Sequence record: PZ465523.1
DNA: 49,119 nucleotides
Strand: one strand, 5' to 3'
DNA from: a phage
Shown here: positions 21,479 to 49,119 of the stretch, in pieces
Layout of the letters: each line of letters begins with the position of its first letter
Position numbering within the stretch: the stretch's first letter is position 1
The notes under the pieces: generated by a model
Told to the model about the DNA's origin: nothing
Databases searched by the model: none
The model's input: the letters and a program-made list of their open reading frames with translations, nothing else
Translations under genes and position numbers: made by a program

Positions 21479-22164
21479 GCGATCGCTTTGAAAAATCCAC
21501 GCGGCGACAGGGATCGTATCAGTTTGGTCTTTGCCGACTTGCCGCCCAACTTGCTATGCTGCGCAGAGTACCCTTCAGGAAGGCTTACAGGTTTTCTCTC
21601 CGGCATGACAAAATCGTCCGAGGTCCAAAGACACGTCTTTTTCGGATAAGCATCGCGCGGCGCAATATACATCGGGAACCAGGGATGCGAGTCATTCTCA
21701 GGAAGATAGCCGCCATACTCCCAGGGATTGAATGAGTGATCTGGTTTTCTCCAGGCAGATGACAGAACGCTAACCGGATTCTCAATGATGTAAGTCACGC
21801 CCAGGGCGTCGCCAATATTCGCAGCAATCCGGGCGGTGGCAACGGCCTTCTCCTGGAATAAGGGATTGCGCTTACGCTTACTTGCAAAGTGACGAGCACC
21901 ACTAACAGCCAGGTCAGTGCATGGAGGAAAGGCCATAATGAAATCCGGCTTACCATACACACCCGCAATCGCATCACGTTCGAACGTCTCATCAATGAAG
22001 ACGTTCACATACTCAATGTTCGGATGCTGTACCCGAGCATTGTACTTTGCATAATCTCCGTGATCGGCCCCGTCAAAGTTGAAGCACATCACCTTATGAC
22101 CTTGCTTAGCCAGTTCATGACCAGCAAGGCCGGAACCGTCGAATAGTGACCAAATTAGTTTCAT
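21460..22164 (-). CDS. dcm: DNA cytosine-5 methyltransferase
   Basis: LFDGSGLAG (motif I-like), FPPCTDLAVSG (motif IV PC), IIENP (motif VI ENV); start at ATG 22164 after AGGAGA. Confidence 0.7.
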   Translation of the reverse strand: MKLIWSLFDGSGLAGHELAKQGHKVMCFNFDGADHGDYAKYNARVQHPNIEYVNVFIDETFERDAIAGVYGKPDFIMAFPPCTDLAVSGARHFASKRKRNPLFQEKAVATARIAANIGDALGVTYIIENPVSVLSSAWRKPDHSFNPWEYGGYLPENDSHPWFPMYIAPRDAYPKKTCLWTSDDFVMPERKPVSLPEGYSAQHSKLGGKSAKTKLIRSLSPRGFFKAIANSTFC

Positions 22165-22197
22165 TGCAAATCTCCTGCTGATTGGTTGATGTGATGA

Positions 22198-22242
22198 ATC
22201 ATACCCTGCCAACATAGCTAAGTCGTTAGCAAAAAATGCTAT
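22198..22242 (-). promoter_or_regulatory. Box-type promoter variant: AATAGCATTTTTTGCTAAC, 23 nt, TATGAT
   Basis: Immediately upstream of Dcm leader CAACCAATCAGCAGGAG. Confidence 0.5.
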
Positions 22243-22427
22243 TCCAATAGTTGCTCATTATTCCATCAATAGTGGAATAGTTGGAATAATTTTGATTGTG
22301 ATTGATTGCGAATGATTAAACGTGATTATTGCATTGTGTGCAACAGTTGGTTGATTTGTTGATGAGAATGCAATGATTGTGAGAGGGAGGATTTAGTGTT
22401 ACCCGGTTCGCTTGGTAGTCACCTCCA

Positions 22428-22447
22428 TTTTTAGCAAAAAGTGCTAT
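22428..22447 (-). promoter_or_regulatory. Box GATAGCACTTTTTGCTAAAA without a matching -10 at the usual spacing
   Basis: Distal-most box of the leftward arm, followed by hairpin GGAGG...CCTCC. Confidence 0.45.
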
Positions 22448-22856
22448 CCGTCTATATCTTCGTTGTAATTGTCGTAATAGTTGTATACTATCGGGGGTGT
22501 TACAAAATGGCCCCGAAGGGATGGGCCTATATATACTAAAATATCTATATATAATAATAAGATAGATAATATATATATATTTATTTATTATATTATATAT
22601 TGGTATGTAATCGGCGTAATAGGTGCAACCGCATTTTTGGAAGGTGGCATATATTTCAGGGTGCATAGTATAAAAAACATACTATTCCGCGCGTCGAAAT
22701 GGATGTGTGTGCTTTTATAGAAAAAGTCGGTTGCATCGGTTGCACTGGTTACAAAAATAAAAAATGCAGCTATAGACATTGACGCGCCTAGCCAGGTTGC
22801 TGTAACATGTTTTTCGGGGCGGCAAGTTACGCCCGTAGACAACGAGGTATAGACAA

Positions 22857-23432
22857 ATGAAAACTCAGCTTAAAGAAGTAACGGAATTCGAACTCAACTT
22901 GCCGGACTACATTCGCAAGGCGATTGAAAATCACCGTTCAGGGAGTGAGTTCTCAATCACCGGAAAGCAAATGGTAGCTATCTACGTGCATGAGCAAGCC
23001 GAGATCGTAAAGATCACTCAGGATGTTGAGCTAACCGAGGACCAGATTGATGAGGCTATCATTAACGAGTACACGTCGCGCTCAGCCTGGTTGCTCGAAC
23101 GACTCACCGCTTCGTATGTTTCCAATATCATCAAGCGCCACATGCTCAAGGTGCATAACAAGGCCGTGTCGGTTCGAATCAATCGCGATCAGGTGGATGG
23201 CGTGACGATATTCATCACTGAACTGGAAGGTGAGGAAGCAGAAAAGGTCATAGGCGAAGCGAAACAGGGAAAGAGAGGACGGAAGCGTAAGAGCGTAGCC
23301 GATGTGTTCAATGCGAAGGTTGAGGCGTTCAGAATCGATCTGAGAGAGTTTGAAGGAAGCAACATCTCGGTATCGGATCTCAATAAACTGGTGGAGCAAT
23401 TCCGCGCACATTTACTGGGTGAGGAGAAGTAA
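22857..23432 (+). CDS. Hypothetical early protein (191 aa)
   Basis: First gene of rightward early operon; acidic protein with Lys/Arg cluster KQGKRGRKRK. Confidence 0.55.
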   Translation: MKTQLKEVTEFELNLPDYIRKAIENHRSGSEFSITGKQMVAIYVHEQAEIVKITQDVELTEDQIDEAIINEYTSRSAWLLERLTASYVSNIIKRHMLKVHNKAVSVRINRDQVDGVTIFITELEGEEAEKVIGEAKQGKRGRKRKSVADVFNAKVEAFRIDLREFEGSNISVSDLNKLVEQFRAHLLGEEK

Positions 23433-23434
23433 TC

Positions 23435-23590
23435 ATGAACAAGAAGAATGAAGGCAAAAAGAGCATTAGCCGTCACTTGGACACGTTCAAGCTGGATACT
23501 AAAAAACTGAGCGCGAACCGCATTCAACTTAGTAGCATCAATGAGATCGTGCGCCAGATGAAAGCGCATATCGAAAAGTGTGGACTGTGA
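23435..23590 (+). CDS. Small basic protein (51 aa) not in ORF track
   Basis: Strong RBS GAGGAGAAG; ATG 2 nt after upstream stop. Confidence 0.45.
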   Translation: MNKKNEGKKSISRHLDTFKLDTKKLSANRIQLSSINEIVRQMKAHIEKCGL

Positions 23591-23603
23591 GCACTGAACG
23601 GTA

Positions 23604-23648
23604 AATAGCACTTTTTGTTAAAACCGGATCGGAATAACCTGGTATAGT
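23604..23648 (+). promoter_or_regulatory. Box-type promoter: AATAGCACTTTTTGTTAAAA, 22 nt, TATAGT
   Basis: Read directly; upstream of gene 23680..24168. Confidence 0.55.
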
Positions 23649-23679
23649 AACCCCATCGACAACGAACGAGGACGCAAAC

Positions 23680-24168
23680 ATAAAAATCAAATTACTTTGC
23701 ACTGGCGGTTACAAGGGATTCACCCGCAACCTGGAAGCAGACCCTATCGTGGTTGATGCGGTTAAGTGCGATTCCAGCACTGGAGGCTACCGCGTTAAGG
23801 TTGACGATCTGGTTAAAGCTGGCGTGTACGATCTTGACTATGGACTTTCGGTTAGCCCTGTATTTGGTACGGCTGACTTTAACGAGAATGACGGAACGAT
23901 GTTCTTCTTCGAATGGGAAGTTCAAGCAAATCCTAAGCCGCGCAAGGTTCGACTTCTCAGTAATGGCGGCTACCCGCTGCGACAAGGCTATGAGAACCGC
24001 ACATTCCCAGTTATCGTGGACTTTGAAGAAATTACTAGCAATCTGGCATACGTTAACGATGAGCAGTTGCGAGCCGTTGGATTTGTCGGCGGGATGAATA
24101 AAGAGACGCTTTGCTTCTTCCACTGTAACGCCGAGCCGTTCGATATTGAGTGCGAGTTAGTTTACTAA
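23680..24168 (+). CDS. Cys beta-hairpin repeat family protein; apparent ATA start (ORF-track GTG at 23749 is the alternative)
   Basis: Frame open from 23638; RBS CGAGGA + 7 nt + ATA aligns with leaders of neighbouring genes; repeats IKLLCTGGYKGF and VKCDSSTGGYRVKV. Confidence 0.5.
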   Translation: MKIKLLCTGGYKGFTRNLEADPIVVDAVKCDSSTGGYRVKVDDLVKAGVYDLDYGLSVSPVFGTADFNENDGTMFFFEWEVQANPKPRKVRLLSNGGYPLRQGYENRTFPVIVDFEEITSNLAYVNDEQLRAVGFVGGMNKETLCFFHCNAEPFDIECELVY

Positions 24169-24209
24169 GCACGAATTGTTAAAAGGGGATTTGTCCTGAC
24201 TGGTATAAT
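24166..24209 (+). promoter_or_regulatory. Box-type promoter: TAAGCACGAATTGTTAAAA, 22 nt, TATAAT
   Basis: Gene stop TAA is the first triplet of the box; hairpin GGGGATT...AATCCCC. Confidence 0.55.
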
Positions 24210-24239
24210 CCCCAAGTAAACCACTAAGAGGAAAGAGTT

Positions 24240-24737
24240 ATGTTGAAATTAAACGAGATTAAATTCCCTGTAGTTTTTAACACTATTAGCTGCGGAAAAA
24301 TAACCTGCCATAGCAAAGACCGTGCAACAGATTCGTCATTCAATGAGTGCCATCCGTCTATTGTTGGTAATCTCATTGAGCTTCATAACAAGCACAACCC
24401 TGATAACATCCCGTCTCTTCCATATTATGTTGAGTATGTTGGACCCGGCTGGAAGGCTGGTTGGAAAGTTGGTAGAGCAATCTTTCATTCGTCAAAGCCA
24501 GAAATCAAGCCATCGCTACAGTGCACTCAGATCGAGAACATGCCATTGAGCGCGACGCTAAAGGGAGTCCAGCTTGATAGCGAATCCTGGACCGAGATTA
24601 CCGCCACACCTAAAACTATTGAGGTGCACGATGATGTGGTGATTCTCCTGTTGCATTACGGCGGCTTTAAGCACAAGACTGTATCAGGTGAAATCAGCAT
24701 TAAGCGCGGAACGCTTGTACGCTACGAGGTGAAATAA
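24240..24737 (+). CDS. Hypothetical protein (165 aa)
   Basis: RBS AAGAGGAAAGAG; ATG start. Confidence 0.55.
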   Translation: MLKLNEIKFPVVFNTISCGKITCHSKDRATDSSFNECHPSIVGNLIELHNKHNPDNIPSLPYYVEYVGPGWKAGWKVGRAIFHSSKPEIKPSLQCTQIENMPLSATLKGVQLDSESWTEITATPKTIEVHDDVVILLLHYGGFKHKTVSGEISIKRGTLVRYEVK

Positions 24738-24886
24738 TGGCTGCATGGGTTTTGATTATCTTAATGAGCACCGGGCCGGATCACGTATACATGGAAAGTC
24801 AGCAATCATGCAACAAGGCTCGGGAAGTAATTGCAGAGAACAAGCCGTTCGGGTACGAAGTTAAAACAATGTGCGTTAAACGATAG
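24737..24886 (+). CDS. Small membrane protein (49 aa) not in ORF track
   Basis: ATG overlaps upstream stop; hydrophobic N-terminus; TAG stop is part of box. Confidence 0.45.
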   Translation: MAAWVLIILMSTGPDHVYMESQQSCNKAREVIAENKPFGYEVKTMCVKR

Positions 24887-24926
24887 CACTAATTGCTAAA
24901 CCTTCCGCAAGGCCATTTGATATAGT
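24883..24926 (+). promoter_or_regulatory. Box-type promoter: ATAGCACTAATTGCTAAA, 22 nt, TATAGT
   Basis: Hairpin AAGGCCA...TGGCCTT spanning the -10. Confidence 0.55.
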
Positions 24927-24966
24927 GGCCTTATTGAAGCAAGGCAACCAATCAGAGGAATCAGCT

Positions 24967-25173
24967 ATGGCTACACGACTAACTCAGTGGCAGATTTACG
25001 ACAAGGCATCACGCCTTCGTGAATCGCTTCGCGGACTGACGCCGAATGACCGAATGGAGATTATCGGGCACGCATTGCACGAACTCACGCCTCAGGACGT
25101 AATCTATCATTCATGCGGCAATAAATTCTGGAACGTAACATTCGAGGTAAAGAAAGATGAGCAAAACTCATAA
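24967..25173 (+). CDS. Hypothetical protein (68 aa)
   Basis: ATG after conserved leader CAACCAATCAGAGGAATCA. Confidence 0.5.
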   Translation: MATRLTQWQIYDKASRLRESLRGLTPNDRMEIIGHALHELTPQDVIYHSCGNKFWNVTFEVKKDEQNS

Positions 25174-25444
25174 GTTAAAAATTACCCCGGTCCATTTCAT
25201 CGGTGTAATGAACGGCACAAAAACGGCAGAGTTCCGCATTAATGACCGCAACTTCCAGCTTGGCGATATCCTGGAGCTATGCGAGTTCGATCGGGATGAG
25301 TTTACCGGGTGGGAAGTGCATGCCAGGGTATCCGATGTTACAGACGTGACTCCTTACATCAATCGCGGGTATGACGATCAAGGATGCGACTTCACGCAAT
25401 ACGTGATGTTGTCAATCAAGCCTTACAGGAAGGTTAGACCATGA
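25157..25444 (+). CDS. ASCH-domain-like protein
   Basis: GTKTAEFR matches the ASCH G-x-K-x-x-E-x-R signature. Confidence 0.5.
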   Translation: MSKTHKLKITPVHFIGVMNGTKTAEFRINDRNFQLGDILELCEFDRDEFTGWEVHARVSDVTDVTPYINRGYDDQGCDFTQYVMLSIKPYRKVRP

Positions 25445-26097
25445 AATTTGAGTGCGTATCAAGTAGCGGATCTGGTTTTAAGTGGGGAAAAACTTACAAA
25501 GGTGTTCGCGTAAATGATGACAGCTTCATCATTACTGATGAGAACGGTTGCAACGTGAACGTTGTACGGCGTCACGAATACCAGGAAATTTTCCTGCCTT
25601 ATGGCGGTAGCTCAAAATATATCTTCCATCGAATCGTGGATGGTGTTAAATTTAACGACGTAATCGAAGCAATCAACCAACTGCATAATAAAGAGGTAAA
25701 ATTTATGAAATTCGAATGTATCAGTGATAACACCAAAAAATTTACCGTTGGCAAAATCTACGACGTTCCTACTGAGCACGCAAAGCACACTGTAGCGCTG
25801 ACCGACGACGCGGGCCGCCACCGCATTGCAACCGTAACTCACAATGGCGAAGGTCTTCGCTGGAATAGCGGCGGCACTAAGTTCGCAACGTTCGGCAAGA
25901 AGAAGCAGAAATTTAATACCAGTCGAATCAAGGGCGGTTTCCGCATCGAACATGGTAAGATTCACAGCGTTCATCCAAGCGAAGTTGATGGTAAAGTCAA
26001 GCCTAAGCTGACCAACAAGGATATTGATAATCTGGCGAATCTGGCTATGGCTACCGTGCTTCTTATTTCTCTTATCGTGCTGTTTTTCGTAGTTTAA
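25441..26097 (+). CDS. Membrane-anchored protein with two tandem Cys beta-hairpin repeats
   Basis: Repeats MKFECVSSSGSGFKWGKTYKGV and MKFECISDNTKKFTVGKIYDV; C-terminal TMD. Confidence 0.6.
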   Translation: MKFECVSSSGSGFKWGKTYKGVRVNDDSFIITDENGCNVNVVRRHEYQEIFLPYGGSSKYIFHRIVDGVKFNDVIEAINQLHNKEVKFMKFECISDNTKKFTVGKIYDVPTEHAKHTVALTDDAGRHRIATVTHNGEGLRWNSGGTKFATFGKKKQKFNTSRIKGGFRIEHGKIHSVHPSEVDGKVKPKLTNKDIDNLANLAMATVLLISLIVLFFVV

Positions 26098-26254
26098 CTT
26101 AAAGTGGGAATCGTTCCTGAGCGGTTCCCTATTTTTATGAGGTGAATATAAATAGCTTTATGCCTGACTTTAAGAACTGGAAAAACGAACCTCCATCATT
26201 TCATGAGTTGTTATTCTGCCTGCTGGTTTTGACGCTATCTCTTAAGGGTGTTTT

Positions 26255-26473
26255 ATGGCTACTATCATGACAGCAGAAGATGCAGCACGCGACGCAGTGG
26301 AAGGGATGCGCCCAAATAGCTCCAGAATCGCCCACTACTACAAATCTGATGTGTCGGCAGTGCAATTGGTCCATGAGATTTTAAGGCTACCACAAGTCGA
26401 TTCAGCGCGCGTGGTGACGTGCTTAAAAAATTATTTTTGCATCACTATTAAAACGAATAGCACGAATTGCTAA
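26255..26473 (+). CDS. Hypothetical protein (72 aa)
   Basis: ATG start; C-terminus NSTNC encoded by the box. Confidence 0.45.
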   Translation: MATIMTAEDAARDAVEGMRPNSSRIAHYYKSDVSAVQLVHEILRLPQVDSARVVTCLKNYFCITIKTNSTNC

Positions 26474-26500
26474 AACCTATCAAGGGGAATGCGCTATGAT
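26456..26500 (+). promoter_or_regulatory. Box-type promoter: AATAGCACGAATTGCTAAAA, 22 nt, TATGAT
   Basis: Hairpin GGGGAAT-gcgctatg-ATTCCCC. Confidence 0.55.
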
Positions 26501-26530
26501 TCCCCTACACCAACAAACGAGGAATCACTA

Positions 26531-26890
26531 ATGAAACACTTAATTTGCATTGAAACGCCTAACGATGAATACACTCTTCACGGTATCGGAATGTTCAAAG
26601 GTCACTACATGACAGCAAGCATTCATGATGCGCGACTATGCGATGGCGATCTGATGATTATATCAAAAGAAGTAAATCCGTACATTATGCAGAATCTTGG
26701 CAATAACGAATATATGGCATACGGCTGCAACGCCGTGTACAAGCATATCAAGATCCGCAAGCGTGTCGTGCGTGCATTCAAGAAGATTGCAATGAAATAC
26801 TGGAAGATGAGCAAGAAGGACGCCGGACGCTGGCGCGCAATGTTGCTGACTCGTACTTCTATCGTAACGGTGAGTCCCGCTACTTCCTGA
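26531..26890 (+). CDS. Hypothetical protein; C-terminal region may continue in another frame
   Basis: RBS CGAGGAA; alternative frame 26707..26976 encodes a more protein-like tail ending SCW. Confidence 0.45.
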   Translation: MKHLICIETPNDEYTLHGIGMFKGHYMTASIHDARLCDGDLMIISKEVNPYIMQNLGNNEYMAYGCNAVYKHIKIRKRVVRAFKKIAMKYWKMSKKDAGRWRAMLLTRTSIVTVSPATS

Positions 26891-26974
26891 TCGATGAAAT
26901 TATGGAAAGCTACGGCGGCGACTTCAGCCAGTGTAGCTTTGACGATTGGGCTGATTATGAGATCAGTTGCTGGT

Positions 26975-27019
26975 AATAGCACGAATTGCTAAAACTTGCT
27001 CAAGGGCATTTGTTAGAAT
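26975..27019 (+). promoter_or_regulatory. Box-type promoter: AATAGCACGAATTGCTAAAA, 22 nt, TAGAAT
   Basis: Hairpin AAGGGCATT...AATGCCCTT. Confidence 0.55.
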
Positions 27020-27058
27020 GCCCTTCGTTGAGTTAAGCAACCAATCAGAGGAATCAAT

Positions 27059-27262
27059 ATGAAAACTATTACCGGAATGAGCAACGAAACGAGAACGCAG
27101 AACGTTAACATGCTAATCGGGATGGCTGACGATATTCAGAATAGCCATGTCGTTATTGATTCATGCAATCAGACTCGTGAGAGTAAATTTGAATCATCCG
27201 GCTACAAAATTGTTGAAGAAGAATTAACCATCAAAATCATTCGCGTACAGGAGAAAGCATAA
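27059..27262 (+). CDS. Hypothetical protein (67 aa)
   Basis: ATG after leader CAACCAATCAGAGGAATCA. Confidence 0.5.
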   Translation: MKTITGMSNETRTQNVNMLIGMADDIQNSHVVIDSCNQTRESKFESSGYKIVEEELTIKIIRVQEKA

Positions 27263-27795
27263 TGGATAAAATCACAATTTGGGGTCAGACAATCAACCTG
27301 TTTCTCGGCACTCGCCGCGTGGCAATCTTTGACTTCGACGGAACACTGAGTGACGGCTCAAAACGTCTTCACCTGCTACCGACGAAAGATTTGCACTTAA
27401 CGGAAAGCTGGTCTGAGTTCAACCGCGCGGCAATATTTGACAATCCTATCCGTAGTACGATTGATGTGATGAACTCTATGTTTGCCGCTGGGTATCATGT
27501 GATTATTTTAACCGGGCGAAGCGATGAGGTGCGTTACGCATCTGAGTTATGGCTTAAGCATCACGGCGCTCGATATGATTACTTAGTCATGAGGCCGCAT
27601 ACCGACAACCGCAAAGACACGGTAATGAAAGAAGAGGCTGTGCGCGCGATCGGCATTGATAACATTCTGGCGGCCTGGGATGACTCACCGCAAATTATTC
27701 CATTATTCCGATCGCTTGGAATAACCACGTATGCCGTAGTTGACTATGGCGATAACGTTCACGACCATTTAAAATCTCACGGGGTGGATGAGTGA
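27262..27795 (+). CDS. HAD-superfamily phosphatase (polynucleotide 3'-phosphatase-like)
   Basis: DxDGT motif FDFDGTL near N-terminus; later TGR and DD motifs; start overlaps upstream stop. Confidence 0.65.
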   Translation: MDKITIWGQTINLFLGTRRVAIFDFDGTLSDGSKRLHLLPTKDLHLTESWSEFNRAAIFDNPIRSTIDVMNSMFAAGYHVIILTGRSDEVRYASELWLKHHGARYDYLVMRPHTDNRKDTVMKEEAVRAIGIDNILAAWDDSPQIIPLFRSLGITTYAVVDYGDNVHDHLKSHGVDE

Positions 27796-27907
27796 ACCTA
27801 TACGAATTTATTGCAGCACATCCTGTATTGACGGTTATCATCCTGTTAATCATCAATCACACTATCATCAATGTGGCAAAATTATTTTTAGGGAGATACT
27901 AACATGA
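27788..27907 (+). CDS. Cys/His-rich 39-aa peptide between phosphatase and kinase
   Basis: ATG overlaps phosphatase 3' end; stop TGA overlaps kinase ATG (ATGA); sequence MSEPIRIYCSTSCIDGYHPVNHQSHYHQCGKIIFREILT. Confidence 0.4.
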   Translation: MSEPIRIYCSTSCIDGYHPVNHQSHYHQCGKIIFREILT

Positions 27908-28476
27908 AAACAGCTATCATTTTAAACGGCGCACCTAGAGCGGGAAAAGACACTATCGGATGCATCCTGGCTGACACTTACGATCACGTAGCGCTCCGCA
28001 GCTTCAAGGCTCCAATGTTTGAGATTGCCCGGGCAATCCTGGGTGAAGCTAACTACGAGTATTTCATGTTCTTGTATGATGACCGTCGATATAAAGAAGA
28101 GCCAGCATCAATCCTGAACGGTAAAAGCCCGCGCCAGTTTATGATCTGGATTAGCGAGGAAGTCATCAAGCCGCAGTTCGGAAATCGCTTCTTCGGTATG
28201 CGAGCGGAAAGCGAGGTGAAAGAGTCGAACTCCCTTTCGGTATTTACTGATGGTGGATTCAAAGACGAAATCTTGCAGATGATTGAAGGTGATATCCAAG
28301 TCAAGCTATGCCGCATACATCGCAACGGCTGCAACTTCGATAACGACAGTCGAGATTATATCTACTTGGATGATATGATCGGTGTCAACGGTTATCAGGA
28401 ATGTGATTTCTTCTCTGTCGAAGGTCATCCAGAAATTACCGCTCAGCACATAGCCGCCACGTTCATCAATAAATAG
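27904..28476 (+). CDS. P-loop nucleotide or polynucleotide kinase
   Basis: Walker A NGAPRAGKDT near N-terminus; stop TAG inside box. Confidence 0.6.
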   Translation: MKTAIILNGAPRAGKDTIGCILADTYDHVALRSFKAPMFEIARAILGEANYEYFMFLYDDRRYKEEPASILNGKSPRQFMIWISEEVIKPQFGNRFFGMRAESEVKESNSLSVFTDGGFKDEILQMIEGDIQVKLCRIHRNGCNFDNDSRDYIYLDDMIGVNGYQECDFFSVEGHPEITAQHIAATFINK

Positions 28477-28516
28477 CACGAATTGCTAAAACGTCGATGG
28501 GGTGATTTGATATAGT
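28472..28516 (+). promoter_or_regulatory. Box-type promoter: AATAGCACGAATTGCTAAAA, 22 nt, TATAGT
   Basis: Read directly; kinase stop embedded. Confidence 0.55.
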
Positions 28517-28549
28517 TACCTCATCGACAACCAAGAGAGACAAATCGAA

Positions 28550-28759
28550 ATGATGGTATCAACTGATAAGTTTTTCACTTGCACTAAAACTTCTGAAGTA
28601 TTCGAACTGGTTCATACTGATAATGGTGATTTCATGCATGACGGTTGCGACGTTTTTATCGAAGTGAAAGAAAGCGACTATGACGACGGAGTTTATTATA
28701 ACCCGGCAGTGAACACTCAGTTTTTTACCCCGATCGAAGAGGAAGGAGAAGAGGCATGA
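28550..28759 (+). CDS. Small acidic protein (69 aa)
   Basis: C-terminus PIEEEGEEA; ATG after RBS AGAGAGA. Confidence 0.5.
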   Translation: MMVSTDKFFTCTKTSEVFELVHTDNGDFMHDGCDVFIEVKESDYDDGVYYNPAVNTQFFTPIEEEGEEA

Positions 28760-29100
28760 TCACGATTAACCTGTCAGAGAAGCAAGCTCGTGAAATCCTG
28801 GACACGATCGGCAACCAGTTACACATCAAAGGCGCTACCGCCGAACTTCTTAATCAGATCGAAAGGCAGCTCACTCCGGTGTCAACGAATCAATCTGAGT
28901 TCGCAGCATGGAAGAGTGAGCGCATCTTGCCAAATATCATCAAGACATGGAAGCGCAAGCATAAAAAAGAAATCAACGTTGAGGATTTATTTACCGATGA
29001 ATTAAGTCCTTCAAAGGTTGCTCAATATCAGTTGCGATACATGGAATCAGTTTGCAATCAGGTTTTAGGTGTTAATTTTTCATTCGGGAGAGGCAAATAA
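28756..29100 (+). CDS. Hypothetical protein (114 aa)
   Basis: Overlapping start/stop with neighbours. Confidence 0.5.
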   Translation: MITINLSEKQAREILDTIGNQLHIKGATAELLNQIERQLTPVSTNQSEFAAWKSERILPNIIKTWKRKHKKEINVEDLFTDELSPSKVAQYQLRYMESVCNQVLGVNFSFGRGK

Positions 29101-29330
29101 TGTTCGGTTTAAGTGAAGCGGAATGGAATGTTGTAAAGCGAGCAGCAAAGGAATTAAATAAATTCGTCAGTGGCATGAAGAAAGAAGATCGGAAAAACGA
29201 CAAGATCATGATTGACGTTATTTCTACTCACCACAAAAAGGTCGAATTACTCATAGATCGCTACAAATTTGTCTGGACTGCCGGGTATATTGCCGGGCGC
29301 GTAGGTAACAAAGAAGGGGATTACGAATAA
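29100..29330 (+). CDS. Hypothetical protein (76 aa)
   Basis: ATG overlaps upstream stop. Confidence 0.5.
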   Translation: MFGLSEAEWNVVKRAAKELNKFVSGMKKEDRKNDKIMIDVISTHHKKVELLIDRYKFVWTAGYIAGRVGNKEGDYE

Positions 29331-29533
29331 TGGCTAATTTACCAAAGAGAGGAGAGCAGGTTCGATGTGTCACTTCACGCAATAGCGACGCTTTCTCAGC
29401 CGGGTGCGCGTACGACGTAGAAAAGGTTAGTAAATCAAAGAGGCTTGTATTCGTGTACGGCGACGATGGAAACTTGCATGAGATTGATTACCCGCAGGAT
29501 ATGACTAAGGGACAATTCGAAATTAATGATTGA
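29330..29533 (+). CDS. Small protein of the Cys beta-hairpin family
   Basis: VRCVTSRNSDAFSAGCAYDV motif. Confidence 0.5.
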   Translation: MANLPKRGEQVRCVTSRNSDAFSAGCAYDVEKVSKSKRLVFVYGDDGNLHEIDYPQDMTKGQFEIND

Positions 29534-29697
29534 CCTACGTCACTGAGCGGTGATAGTATTAATCCCGTAGACAGACGAGGCGCAATTAGGCGCAACGCGT
29601 GAGACGATTCTCACTCTTCCAGCTAACAAGCTCGGTTGCATAGTGGTTAAGCAACGCCGCAGACCCGTAAGCGGCAAAAATTCAAGAGGATTGCATA
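29530..29697 (+). promoter_or_regulatory. Sigma70-like promoter (TTGACC ... TAGTAT) plus a highly structured ~130-nt leader
   Basis: Hairpins GAGA-cgat-TCTC, GTTGC...GCAAC, GCCGC...GCGGC; motif CCCGTAGACAGACGAGG shared with 22832..22847. Confidence 0.45.
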
Positions 29698-29859
29698 ATG
29701 CAAAACACTAAAGATGAATCAGTCAAAATTGAAATTAAAGTAACTCGCAACGGTGAAACCACTCGTTATAAAAAACGATTAAATCCTGGCGAGGCTGTTA
29801 TTGGTCGAATTGCTGGCGTTATGATTAAGGCGCAGGAAGATGAAGCGATTCAAAGTTAA
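29698..29859 (+). CDS. Small protein (53 aa) not in ORF track
   Basis: ATG after RBS AAGAGGA. Confidence 0.4.
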   Translation: MQNTKDESVKIEIKVTRNGETTRYKKRLNPGEAVIGRIAGVMIKAQEDEAIQS

Positions 29860-30025
29860 ATTAATCATTCGAAAGATGGGAATGTTTTGCCAGTCGTGCA
29901 AGCAATCTTTCGAAACTGAATTATCAGCAACCAGTCAGGCAGAAGCCATCACGAAAGCAAAAAAACTTTCCGGCGCTAACCTTGACACTCACAAAATAAA
30001 TATTGAATTAATCAAGGAGATTTAA
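29840..30025 (+). CDS. Small CxxC-containing protein; start uncertain
   Basis: ORF-track ORF overlapping the previous one; contains CQSC. Confidence 0.35.
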   Translation: MKRFKVKLIIRKMGMFCQSCKQSFETELSATSQAEAITKAKKLSGANLDTHKINIELIKEI

Positions 30026-30026
30026 C

Positions 30027-30254
30027 ATGACAATTTTTTTATTGATTATCGCTGGTGTTGTTATTTTTGGTGCTGGTTTGTTTGCTGGCTTCGCACTTGT
30101 TGCGGCAGCAATTGCGATGGACGCGAAGGATAAAACTGTTGTATGGCTGACCTACTCACCTAAGAAGGACCAATGGGAAATGACTGGCGACCTTGCTCAC
30201 TGCTATTCCAAAGCTAAGACCCACCCTAAAGGCATTAAACGACTATTGTCGTGA
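30027..30254 (+). CDS. Small membrane protein (75 aa)
   Basis: N-terminal hydrophobic helix IFLLIIAGVVIFGAGLFAGFALVAAAIA. Confidence 0.55.
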   Translation: MTIFLLIIAGVVIFGAGLFAGFALVAAAIAMDAKDKTVVWLTYSPKKDQWEMTGDLAHCYSKAKTHPKGIKRLLS

Positions 30255-30264
30255 TAAACACTAA

Positions 30265-30286
30265 CCCGCTCCGGCGGGTTTTTTTA
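30265..30286 (+). terminator. Rho-independent terminator ending the rightward early operon
   Basis: CCCGC-tcc-GGCGGG stem followed by TTTTTTT. Confidence 0.7.
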
Positions 30287-30303
30287 TGCCTGCAATATGG
30301 TAA

Positions 30304-30322
30304 AATAGCACTAAATGTTAAA
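30304..30322 (+). promoter_or_regulatory. Degenerate box AATAGCACTAAATGTTAAA upstream of terminase small subunit
   Basis: TATGGT hexamer just upstream; RBS AAAGAGG downstream. Confidence 0.4.
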
Positions 30323-30338
30323 CAAAGAGGATGGATTT

Positions 30339-30863
30339 ATGAGTGAACCTAAGAACGCTCCCGTTGTTCAGGGAGGTAATTTCAAAGAGCTATACAAGAA
30401 AAAGTTCGGCACTGTTCTTGCGAAGAACCGGGCAATGACTCCTGAGCAACTATTCGATCTGTCAGTGAAGTATTTTGAGTGGGCCGAGGACAATGCGATC
30501 AAGGCGTCAGAATCAGCCAGCTTTCAGGGTGGCGTTTATGAATCTCTTGTTCATAAGCCGCGCGTCTTCACCTGGACCGGATACCGACTATTTATCGGTG
30601 CAAGCGAGGCCGCAATCATTAAGTGGAAGCGAGAGGAAGAATACAGTGAGGTTATGGAGTTTGTGGAATCGGTAATCAACGAGCAAAAATTCCAGCTTGC
30701 CGCCAACGGTGTTATTAATGCCTCCTTTATCGGCAAGGATCTCGGAATCGATAAGCCAGCCTCAATAAATATCGAAAACTCGTCAGCCTCCGCATCGACA
30801 GTAGTCGCCACTACTGAGGATGCAATGAAAGAGGCAGTAAACAGCATTCTTGATATGCTTTAA
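30339..30863 (+). CDS. Terminase small subunit
   Basis: Position directly before large terminase; ATG 30339 after RBS AAAGAGGA. Confidence 0.6.
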   Translation: MSEPKNAPVVQGGNFKELYKKKFGTVLAKNRAMTPEQLFDLSVKYFEWAEDNAIKASESASFQGGVYESLVHKPRVFTWTGYRLFIGASEAAIIKWKREEEYSEVMEFVESVINEQKFQLAANGVINASFIGKDLGIDKPASINIENSSASASTVVATTEDAMKEAVNSILDML

Positions 30864-47462: not shown

Positions 47463-49119
47463 ATGATTCAAAAAGTGATAAGCGGATCGAAAGGCGGTTC
47501 ATCTAAGCCGCATAAGCCAGTTGAGATGGAAGATAATCTAATCTCAATCAACAAAATCAAGATCCTGTTAGCTGTGTCTGATGGCGAGATTGACGAAACA
47601 TTCAGCCTAAAGCAGTTGATGTTTAACTCAGTCCCTGTGCAAAACGAGGATGGCTCATTTAACTTCGAGGGAGTAAATGCAGAGTTTAGGCCGGGGACGC
47701 AGACTCAGGAATATATCAAGGGGATGGAAGATAGCTCTAGTGAGGTAACTGTAAGCCGTGAGGTTACTACAGATAACCCATACACGATCTCAGTAACCAA
47801 CAAAACGCTTTCGGCAATCCGTATCAAAATGTTTATGCCTCGCGGCGTACGAATTGAAAGCAACGGTGATAAAAACGGCGTAAGAGTTGAGTATGAGGTG
47901 CAACAAGCTGTTGATGGCGGCTCGTTTGAGACGGTGCTCACCGATGTAATCGAAGGCAAAACAATGTCAGGTTATGATCGAAGCAGACGCATAAACCTTC
48001 CGAGCTTTAACAATCAGGTGATATTCAGAGTCGTTCGCAAAACTCCAGACTCTAACGATTCGAACGTGGTCGATGCTATTCAAGTGAAAAGCTACGCCGA
48101 GGTGATTGATGCAAAATTCCGTTACCCTCTGACTGGTCTTCTTTTCGTCGAGTTCGATTCGAAGATGTTCCCAAATCAGTTACCTACGATCTCAATTCGT
48201 AAGCGCTGGAAGATTGTAAACGTTCCGTCAAACTATGATCCAGAATCACGAACTTATAACGGAAATTGGGATGGAACTTTTAAGAAGGCGTGGACTAATA
48301 ATCCGGCTTGGGTGCTTTATGACCTGATGATTAATCAGCGTTATGGGCTGGATCAGAAAGAGCTTGGAATATCTGTCGATAAATGGGCGCTATATGAGGC
48401 GGCGCAATATTGCGACCAGATGGTTCCTGACGGAAAAGGCGGTACTGAGCCTCGCTACCTTTGCGACGTGATAATTCAGTCACAGACTGATGCGTACAAG
48501 GTGATTCGAGATATTTGCTCAATCTTCCGTGGAATGAGCTTTTGGAATGGTGAAAGCATTTCGGTAATCATCGACAGGCCGCGTGAACCTGCGTACATCT
48601 TCACTAACGACAACGTTGTTAACGGTGACTTCTCCTATACTTTCGCAAGCGAGAAAAGTATGTACACGACGTGCAACGTGATGTTTGATGATGAACAAAA
48701 CATGTATCAGCAGGACGTTGAGCCAGTATTCGATCGAGAAGCCACTCTACGGTTCGGGAATAACGTAACAAGCATTACAGCGATCGGGTGCACACGTCGA
48801 AGTGAAGCTAACCGTCGCGGACGATGGATTCTGAAAACAAACCTTCGCAGCACTACGGTAAACTTTGCTACCGGGCTTGAGGGTATGATTCCGACAATTG
48901 GAGATGTTGTAGCGATAGCTGATAACTTCTGGTCAAGTAACTTGACTATGAACCTGTCAGGGCGTTTGCTCGAAGTGTCTGGAAGTCAGATTTTCCTGCC
49001 GTTCCGCGTTGATGCTCGCGCAGGTGACTTTATTATCGTAAATAAGCCCGATGGCAAGCCCGCGAAGCGCACAATCTCAAGTGTTAGTGCGGATGGTAAG
49101 ACTATAGAGGTTAACATCG
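47463..49119 (+). CDS. Tail tip / host specificity protein (lambda J-like), N-terminal part; runs off window end and continues at 1..1884
   Basis: No stop before window end; frame continuous with 1..1884 through the repeat; about 1139 aa in total. Confidence 0.8.
   Translation, partial: MIQKVISGSKGGSSKPHKPVEMEDNLISINKIKILLAVSDGEIDETFSLKQLMFNSVPVQNEDGSFNFEGVNAEFRPGTQTQEYIKGMEDSSSEVTVSREVTTDNPYTISVTNKTLSAIRIKMFMPRGVRIESNGDKNGVRVEYEVQQAVDGGSFETVLTDVIEGKTMSGYDRSRRINLPSFNNQVIFRVVRKTPDSNDSNVVDAIQVKSYAEVIDAKFRYPLTGLLFVEFDSKMFPNQLPTISIRKRWKIVNVPSNYDPESRTYNGNWDGTFKKAWTNNPAWVLYDLMINQRYGLDQKELGISVDKWALYEAAQYCDQMVPDGKGGTEPRYLCDVIIQSQTDAYKVIRDICSIFRGMSFWNGESISVIIDRPREPAYIFTNDNVVNGDFSYTFASEKSMYTTCNVMFDDEQNMYQQDVEPVFDREATLRFGNNVTSITAIGCTRRSEANRRGRWILKTNLRSTTVNFATGLEGMIPTIGDVVAIADNFWSSNLTMNLSGRLLEVSGSQIFLPFRVDARAGDFIIVNKPDGKPAKRTISSVSADGKTIEVNI
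48999..49119. repeat. Terminal direct repeat, copy 2; identical to 1..121
   Basis: Exact identity read directly. Confidence 0.9.

Follow-up and report, generated by a model that had tools for sequence, protein, structure and literature searches.

Several described systems place a regulatory element at the head of a phage or bacterial operon. In phage lambda, the region pR′-qut-6S RNA-tR′ directly precedes the packaging and late genes; its sigma-70 promoter is strong and looks constitutive, and the element bound by Q sits between the −35 and −10 hexamers. The nut sites of lambda and the rrn-type sites lie near the operon start and consist of a linear motif followed by a hairpin, the sequence of which varies between lineages as its pairing is kept. 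The put sites of phage HK022 act via the zinc-binding domain of the RNA polymerase β′ subunit. They need no dedicated phage protein. The putL RNA lies close to its promoter, beginning at +3 of the transcript, and its effect extends over more than 10 kb; both putL and putR are stem-loop RNAs at the 5′ end of a transcript, at the head of a long operon that contains terminators (PMC9378689). Here we describe a promoter and structured leader at 29530-29697 of the phage genome PZ465523.1 (the window, by which we mean the whole analysed stretch of 49,119 nucleotides), which lie between the early and the packaging genes, upstream of the small terminase subunit gene, terS. The leader shares features with each of these systems, and we read it, tentatively and at somewhat less than even confidence, as a cis-acting element that would modify the polymerase and allow read-through into the late genes.

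The genome in the window is that of a T1-like phage (Tunavirus). Its region 29000-30300 is 93–96% identical to about 60 Tunavirus genomes and 94.2% identical to T1 itself, the classic coliphage of the Drexlerviridae, a family that is abundant in phage collections and as laboratory contaminants. In the T1 record the stretch corresponds to a 165-nt gap between Orf58 (CPTT1_020) and Orf57 (CPTT1_021). This gap carries no annotation in the records of T1 or Chapo, and the 2024 re-annotation of phage TLS lists no promoter at the equivalent position (PMC11447400). In the window it contains the following elements, of which the hairpins are named H1 to H4.

29330..29533, + strand: upstream Orf58-like gene, with its stop codon TGA (29531-29533) embedded in the −35 hexamer
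29530..29535, + strand: −35 hexamer TTGACC
29551..29559, + strand: extended −10 element TGaTAGTAT (TG at 29551-29552, TAGTAT at 29554-29559), with an 18-nt spacer from the −35 hexamer
29566..29579, + strand: conserved 5′ motif CGTAGACAGACGAG, 14 nt, single-stranded (family consensus CGTnnACAnAAGAG)
29580..29593, + strand: H1, GCGC, loop AATTAG, GCGC; stem kept, loop hypervariable
29599..29614, + strand: H2, GTGAGA, loop CGAT, TCTCAC, preceded by a conserved AACGC at 29594-29598
29635..29655, + strand: H3, GTTGC, loop ATAGTGGTTAA, GCAAC; lineage-variable
29656..29675, + strand: H4, the terminal hairpin, GCCGC, loop AGACCCGTAA, GCGGC; loop motif YCGTAA conserved
29676-29683, + strand: tail AAAAATTC, in which ATTC is kept whether a Shine-Dalgarno sequence or a tRNA comes next
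29684-29690, + strand: Shine-Dalgarno sequence AAGAGGA of the Orf57-like gene (ATG at 29698)

A preliminary description of this DNA had proposed a sigma-70-like promoter with the upstream stop codon inside TTGACC, followed by a leader of roughly 130 nt with three hairpins. The promoter is indeed present, with the TTGACC, 18-nt spacing and TG-a-TAGTAT of a sigma-70 extended −10 promoter, and its architecture is kept across Drexlerviridae genera. TTGACn is retained in most of the aligned lineages (Rtp has TTGCAT), and the stop of the upstream open reading frame (ORF) always falls inside the −35 hexamer. Across genera the −10 hexamer conforms only to TAnnnT (TAGTAT, TATCAT, TAACAT, TACATT, TAAATT, TAGATT, TAACCT, TAATAT), at a spacing of 17–18 nt. 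In all lineages a fixed 5–6 nt separate it from a conserved CGT, and the surrounding bases drift. Transcription is predicted to start at C29566 or G29567, which would give a leader of about 131 nt up to the ATG at 29698; its length thus agrees with the earlier proposal, and its hairpins number four, all with comparative support, instead of three. The promoter spacer itself contains a CTGAnnGG(T) (29543-29550 in the window) that is conserved throughout the family. Sigma-70 spacers do not usually show such conservation, and as conserved DNA between the −35 and −10 hexamers it is a likeness to the lambda Q system. Its reverse complement resembles ACCAATCAG, a sequence found near ribosome-binding sites elsewhere, for example at 24944 and 27037.

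The distribution of the leader was followed with a covariance model built from 14 sequences, over 80 loci, collected around relatives of the small terminase subunit, together with GenBank representatives of other genera. At E < 0.01 the model finds one match in 54 of the 71 terS-anchored loci, in genera that include Sertoctavirus, Tlsvirus, Henuseptimavirus, Rtpvirus and Webervirus. Sixteen of the 17 loci that it misses carry a short form, that of Webervirus, which scores just below the threshold, so that the leader is present in at least 70 of the 71 loci. Every copy lies on the terS strand, 0.35–0.9 kb upstream of terS, and the window holds a single copy. Sensitive BLAST of the gap gave matches beside annotated tRNA-Ser genes in NBD2 (Vilniusvirus), LF82-10 and a Klebsiella phage, as well as in IME347, and Eclunavirus phages have the 5′ part in common with the leader. 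When 22 distinct sequences are aligned, they show a shared plan of TTGACn, 17–18 nt, TGnTAnnnT, 5–6 nt, an invariant CGTAGAC..A.GAGG and four hairpins with paired substitutions in their stems. This breadth emerged only with terS anchoring and the covariance-model search. Exact-motif scans of IMG/VR with AGACCCGTAAGCGGC and CGTAGACNNANGAGGCGC, and of metagenomes with a longer pattern, returned mostly the same few genera and chance matches, and a search of loci anchored on Orf58 reached close genera only.

Support for the predicted leader structure comes from covariation and not from folding energy, which is taken up below. Among 54 sequences (44 distinct), 91.7% of helix cells are in standard pairs, compared with 61.5% after shuffling and 28–55% when the partners are slid, and 152 cells show double (compensatory) changes, compared with 47 after shuffling. 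Because the alignment behind these counts was fitted to the covariance model, RNAalifold was also run on a plain MAFFT alignment of the first ~60 nt from 18 lineages. H1 and H2 are precisely the hairpins that it predicts, and nine of nine pairs carry compensatory changes; all four pairs of H1 show such changes. Across lineages the H1 stem reads GCGC/GCGC, GCTC/GAGC, GCCC/GGGT, TGTG/CACA, CGGC/GCCG, GGCGG/CCGC or GCCAC/GTGGC. H2 follows (C/G)AACG and usually has the loop GCGAUA, and its stem covaries freely. H3 occurs as GTTGC/GCAAC, GGGC/GCCC, GTGC/GCAC or GTTGG/CCAAC, and H4 as GCCGC/GCGGC, GCCGT/ACGGC, GGGGG/CCCCC, GAGGG/CCCTC or GCGGG/CCCGC. The G-U pairs among these helices (GCCC/GGGT, GCCGT/GCGGC) would be C-A mismatches on the other strand, which points to the + sense RNA as the functional molecule.

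Within Tunavirus the leader is under stronger constraint than the neighboring genes. Among 18 variants, 14 of 118 leader columns are variable, compared with 66 of 199 in orf58 and 27 of 162 in orf57. One of the 14 columns of the 5′ motif varies, none of the 21 in H3, and one each in H2 and H4, and the H1 loop contributes a further four of the 14 variable columns (four of its six positions). This loop (29584-29589) is the only hypervariable spot of the Tunavirus leader, and reads AATTAG, AACTAA, AAAGAA, AATGAA, AAATAA, AGTTAG or AATGAG.

It could be argued that the stretch is conserved purely as DNA, for example as an operator, an origin or a pac site with incidental hairpins, or that it is a degenerate tRNA or tRNA-like remnant. 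The CTGAnnGG of the promoter spacer points to recognition at the DNA level, the BLAST matches fall on annotated tRNA-Ser features, and the H3 loop ATAGTGGTTAAGC is D-arm-like. However, the compensatory changes and the G-U pairs indicate that selection acted on the + sense RNA, the TLS authors place the pac site inside terS (PMC11447400), and H3 is missing in Webervirus. Moreover, no tRNA is found in the window by ARAGORN or by the Rfam tRNA model (RF00005). We therefore regard an explanation of either kind as highly improbable. As to the tRNA lead itself, the homology in NBD2 and LF82-10 lies 5′ of the tRNA-Ser and not within it.

The leader is non-coding, as no reading frame is conserved on either strand. 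Rfam 15 gives no match in the window at gathering thresholds, and for 29480-29760 at E values up to 10 it returns only a spurious hsp17 fragment outside the leader; when six other genera were searched it found tRNAs only. No E. coli genome or prophage matches the leader, and literature searches on T1 or Drexlerviridae transcriptomes or small RNAs yielded nothing relevant. Based on its sequence and that of its relatives, we consider the leader a new, family-wide candidate RNA, absent from Rfam 15, from the T1, Chapo and TLS annotations and from the literature searched. Its kind is already known in principle, namely a promoter-proximal structured leader or small RNA. Judged by eye, the hammerhead core (CUGAnGA), the ops/RfaH element (GGCGGTAG) and CsrA/ARN motifs do not fit the family consensus.

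The 5′ core of the leader is constant, and what follows it varies between lineages. In Webervirus the leader ends after H2 with UUUUAUU, and the Shine-Dalgarno sequence of the next gene comes next. In most other lineages a linker leads to a variable H3, and the loop of the terminal hairpin after it ends in YCGUAA. This terminal hairpin is followed in Tunavirus, Tlsvirus and Eclunavirus by CAACCAUUC or AAAAAUUC and a Shine-Dalgarno sequence. H4 of the window (−9.0 kcal/mol) has AAAAAUUC on its 3′ side and lacks a U-tract, and so does not qualify as an intrinsic terminator. In the Henu7-like and related loci (Henu7 and the loci L135, L133 and L145) the terminal hairpin and a run of four to eight U residues form an intrinsic terminator, at −12 to −21 kcal/mol. 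Boxes resembling CCGTAGAC recur in this part of the leader: H4 of the window (29657-29672) reads CCGCAGAC CCGTAAGC, NBD2 (locus L004, ~1510-1530) reads CCGTAGAC CCGTAAGC, and the Henu7-like terminal loops carry CCGTAAGAC.

The next feature is an Orf57-like gene, an Orf56-like gene or a tRNA. The Orf56-like gene is next in Eclunavirus, Webervirus and the loci L162 and L194, and the Orf57-like gene in most other lineages in which an ORF follows. In several lineages a tRNA comes directly after the ATTC tail (L004, 1545-1632; L005, 1551-1638; L113, 851-924; L147, L149, L151 and L154). ARAGORN identifies it as tRNA-Ser-GCU in NBD2 and LF82-10 and Rfam finds a tRNA in Rtp; in other loci Arg-UCU, Arg-CCU and Trp tRNAs were identified by eye only. 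The leader may explain the placement of tRNA genes in NBD2, LF82-10, Rtp and related loci. The region around the Tunavirus Orf57 Shine-Dalgarno sequence, AAGAGGATTGCA, aligns with GGAAGGATGGCA, the 12 nt at the start of the NBD2 tRNA-Ser; this hints that one was replaced by the other.

The leader might also be an autonomous or leader-derived small RNA, and the terminated forms of other genera have exactly the appearance of one. It would act in trans through its single-stranded 5′ end, either pairing with an RNA of the host or the phage or titrating a protein. Its release would come about by intrinsic termination in Webervirus and the Henu7-like phages, by RNase P where a tRNA abuts, and by RNase E at the A-rich ATTC tail in Tunavirus. 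A 5′ seed, hairpins and a terminator make up a layout that resembles the enterobacterial Hfq-dependent small RNAs. As in RybB and OmrA/B, the leader has its own conserved promoter, a single-stranded 5′ end with conservation that begins exactly at +1, and internal hairpins, and in Webervirus and the Henu7-like genera it also has a terminal hairpin with a U-tail. The hairpin and U-tract that end the element in many genera, the tRNA genes directly after ATTC in NBD2, LF82-10, Rtp and others, and the retention of the element whatever gene comes next are likewise in line with a small RNA. In contrast, the window and all Tunavirus, Tlsvirus and Eclunavirus leaders lack a terminator, U-tail or other 3′-end signal, and a Shine-Dalgarno sequence follows 8 nt later. 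The putative seed differs between genera at four positions (4, 5, 9 and 11), which is unusual for a conserved host target. Furthermore, the leader is strictly syntenic and co-oriented with the downstream genes, and its position and orientation relative to terS never vary. A small RNA acting in trans is the main rival of the cis-acting reading and, in our view, only slightly less probable.

The Shine-Dalgarno sequence just past the leader, together with the Orf56-like or Orf57-like gene that is next in most lineages in which an ORF follows, fits another explanation. Namely, the leader could be the ordinary 5′ untranslated region of an insulated early cassette (promoter, Orf57-56-55, terminator), with hairpins that tune stability, processing or translation and with no effect on the late genes; the unit is indeed bracketed by its own promoter and terminator. 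However, the leader is unchanged in front of a tRNA, which needs no translation control, and the genes that it would serve are far less conserved than the leader itself. H1, at 14 nt, is also too distant from the 5′ end to protect it as a classic 5′ hairpin would. We consider this explanation rather unlikely.

The remaining reading, of a cis-acting leader, is best seen against the order of the genes downstream. In the T1 record the gap is followed by Orf57, Orf56, Orf55, an annotated rho-independent terminator and the small and large terminase subunits, and the window shows the following features.

29698-29859, + strand: Orf57-like gene (ATG at 29698)
29840-30025, + strand: Orf56-like gene, with CxxC
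30027-30254, + strand: Orf55-like gene, with a transmembrane segment
30263..30287, + strand: intrinsic terminator closing the unit, directly upstream of terS (−12.8 kcal/mol; annotated in T1)
30339..30863, + strand: small terminase subunit gene terS, with its start as annotated in T1 (the longest ORF begins at 30315)
30263, 32488, 36662, 37514, 38530, 38866, 40132, 41193, 41927 and 47391, + strand: strong terminators

An equivalent of the 30263-30287 terminator, ending no more than 130 nt upstream of the start of the terS match, is found in 72 of 74 distinct family loci. Beyond it, about ten strong + strand intrinsic terminators punctuate the structural genes of the window between 30263 and 47410, a region in which sigma-70-like promoter matches are not clearly above shuffle expectation. 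A similar situation was reported for TLS, with eleven plus-strand terminators in the late region and three sigma-70 promoters genome-wide, and the re-annotation left the transcription of this terminator-punctuated region unexplained (PMC11447400). A single-copy, family-wide RNA element between the early and packaging genes is a small candidate for the missing control.

We propose the following. A sigma-70 extended −10 promoter would start a transcript at about 29566/29567 that is headed by a conserved non-coding RNA domain, made up of the 14-nt single-stranded 5′ motif, the universally conserved H1 and H2, and the lineage-variable H3 and H4. The unit is the last small transcription unit before the packaging and morphogenesis genes, in the order promoter, leader, tRNA or Orf57/56/55-like genes, terminator, terS. 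Its 5′ domain could serve in cis as a loading or modification site of the nut, qut or put type, such that the RNA, perhaps with the DNA of the promoter spacer, renders the polymerase resistant to termination, either unaided or together with a factor from the host or the phage. The resistant polymerase would then read through the leader's own terminator where there is one, the terS-proximal terminator and the ~ten terminators of the late region. We rank this cis-acting reading first because it covers all of the features: the promoter, the conservation from +1, the 5′ core, the indifference to an ORF or a tRNA next, the variable terminators and the position. The distance from core to terminator ranges from directly after H2 (Webervirus) through after the terminal hairpin (Henu7-like) to about 700 nt downstream (window). 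This variable placement, with a constant 5′ core and a varying next gene, fits action at a distance on terminators. It is possible, though doubtful, that the element is the early-to-late switch of all T1-like phages and an unrecognised site of processive antitermination, either an RNA that works on its own in the manner of put or an RNA/DNA site for a host or phage factor. If so, polymerase from one strong promoter would pass the terS terminator and the ~ten late terminators, which would explain the scarcity of sigma-70 promoters. The promoter and leader may also serve as a compact, strong module for phage engineering.

The comparison with known systems cuts both ways. As with lambda 6S RNA, a short untranslated transcript would end at a terminator in several genera, with many terminators downstream; in the window, unlike at pR′, the leader is separated from the first terminator by three genes. 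The leader also precedes untranslated tRNA genes, a likeness to rrn-type antitermination, and occurs as one site per genome, in which it differs from lambda nut. In architecture the leader differs from put, whose RNAs are ~70 nt long with two long bulged stems and a triplex; the universal core of the leader is a 14-nt single strand with two hairpins of 4–6 bp. Neither sequence similarity nor a match of the leader model was seen in HK022 22000-30000, a stretch that possibly lacks the put sites.

Several observations weigh against the cis-acting reading. No lineage's leader has a boxA-like string (CGCUCUUA, UGCUCUUUAACAA or GCUCUUUAACAA), and the initial transcribed region of the family consensus, CGTnnACAnAAGAG, contains no conserved nAnnnT hexamer, and hence no −10-like pause element of the Q/qut kind. 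H1 and H2 are short compared with the long put stems, and the H1 loop, unlike boxB, is free to vary in Tunavirus and is thus not a specific protein-binding loop. The leader fold has a minimum free energy of −36.0 kcal/mol (z = −0.88), which is not below that of shuffled sequences. No antiterminator-like domain and no homologue of N, Q or another antiterminator was identified among the proteins of the neighboring genes. The promoter, the conserved 5′ end and the U-tailed hairpin of many genera also make up the anatomy of a free-standing small RNA. In addition, a family of 21-nt repeats (ATAGCAC...TAAAA), one of which lies between the terminator and terS, could be real late promoters, and T1 late genes have elsewhere been described as separate 'transcriptons' (as cited in PMC11447400). 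With late promoters at the repeats, or with separate transcriptons, antitermination would be unnecessary. Our confidence is modest because the hallmarks of the known systems were not found, the H1 loop is unconstrained and the 21-nt repeats may be the true late promoters.

The 21-nt repeats follow the pattern AAATAGCAC-(GAA/TTT)-TTG(C/T)TAAAAC, occur far above chance and are distributed over the window as listed here.

7499, 11551, 23603, 26456, 26975, 28470 and 30302, + strand: 21-nt repeats
16329, 18493, 20627, 21457, 22430, 37492 and 41255, reverse-complement orientation: 21-nt repeats

They correspond to the 'DR' element reported for TLS, T1, Rtp and Rogue1, the function of which is unknown (PMC11447400). 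The unit can be folded as UAGCA-N5-UG(C/U)UA, with a G-U pair in the TTT variant, and may form an RNA hairpin resembling boxB. The DR-like copy next to terS, AAAATAGCACTAAATGTTAAAC at 30302-30323, lies between the 30263-30287 terminator and the terS Shine-Dalgarno sequence. The longest terS ORF (ATG at 30315) begins inside this copy; the T1 annotation implies that the real start is at 30339. The terS product is ~36% similar over ~100 aa to TerS proteins of the P22 gp3 type, which agrees with the P22-like pac site suggested inside terS by the TLS authors (PMC11447400). The Orf57-, Orf56- and Orf55-like genes match only PHROGs of unknown function, with no Pfam family above cut-off.

The preliminary description had also drawn attention to a motif, CCCGTAGACA(N)ACGAGG, that the start of the leader would share with the head of the rightward early operon, as a common regulatory or RNA-processing site. 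The motif does occur at both places, as CCCGTAGACAGACGAGG at 29564-29580 and at the site below, which we call site 1.

22832..22847, + strand: site 1, a comparison site that is not part of the leader element; CCCGTAGACAACGAGG, overlapping the Shine-Dalgarno sequence of the first rightward gene

There are exactly two copies of the motif, on the same strand, in two promoter-proximal untranslated regions. Moreover, a second 10-mer, TCGGTTGCAT, is common to both regions, and boxes like CCGTAGAC recur inside H4. None of 100 shuffles contained two matches to the pattern; this null is circular, as the pattern itself had been taken from the sequence. When any same-strand 16-nt match with one 1-nt indel is counted, 7.5 chance pairs are expected per dinucleotide-shuffled genome, so that by itself the repeat does not stand out from chance. 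In the actual genome there are 32 such clusters, many of which belong to true repeat families. Both copies are intergenic, in a few per cent of the genome, which by rough arithmetic lowers the expectation to ~0.02–0.05 and is suggestive only.

Comparison with relatives speaks against a common site. The preliminary description had named absence of the motif from homologous positions in related genomes as grounds for refutation, and on this count the outcome is split: all relatives have the motif at the leader position, and at site 1 they lack it or carry an altered form. In T1 the leader motif is present and the sequence upstream of the first gene is unrelated, and among the few genomes with the site-1 leader of the window, the exact motif is found only in phiL. 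AV106, Chapo and DELF2 read CCCATAGACAACGAGG at site 1, with the family-invariant CGT changed to CAT. The spacing between ACA and GAG at site 1 is 2 nt, compared with the family-invariant 3 (ACA-N3-GAG), and neither H1 nor H2 follows. In an unfiltered search of the whole window with the covariance model, site 1 obtains 7.0 bits (E = 2.9) and comes twelfth among noise matches. Site 1 ends 9 nt before the ATG at 22857, and its ACGAGG half is simply the Shine-Dalgarno sequence (GAGG) of the first gene. The two positions are also not equivalent, as the motif would lie ~17 nt into the site-1 transcript (promoter predicted at 22779-22808) and at +1 in the leader. The proposal of a shared site is thus unsupported and, we think, very improbable; the resemblance to 22832-22847 is probably not a common signal and forms no part of the mechanism proposed above.

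The two copies of TCGGTTGCAT lie at 29632-29641, in the 5′ strand of H3, and at 22728-22737, in a repeat upstream of site 1, and their order relative to CCCGTAGACA is reversed. T1 keeps H3 and not the repeat upstream of site 1, so the two copies do not co-vary. At site 1 itself, TAGACAA occurs twice (22836 and 22850), flanking the Shine-Dalgarno sequence, and Chapo has two copies of ATAGACAA. The upstream repeat is a 9-nt tandem, CGGTTGCAT CGGTTGCAC TGGTTACAA, at 22728-22754, 30–55 nt upstream of the first early promoter, and adjoins a block of ~100 bp of almost pure A+T (22530-22620). In T1 (locus L002, 400-430) a different 9-nt tandem occupies the same place, GATTAACAC in three units, one of which, TTAACCACA, resembles a DnaA box. 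These arrays may be lineage-specific protein-binding arrays, or part of an origin or a pac-proximal region. Finally, the first ~120 bases of the window recur at its end (1-120 and 49000-49119), as the overlap of a circularly permuted or circular assembly, and the window is a permuted complete T1-like genome.

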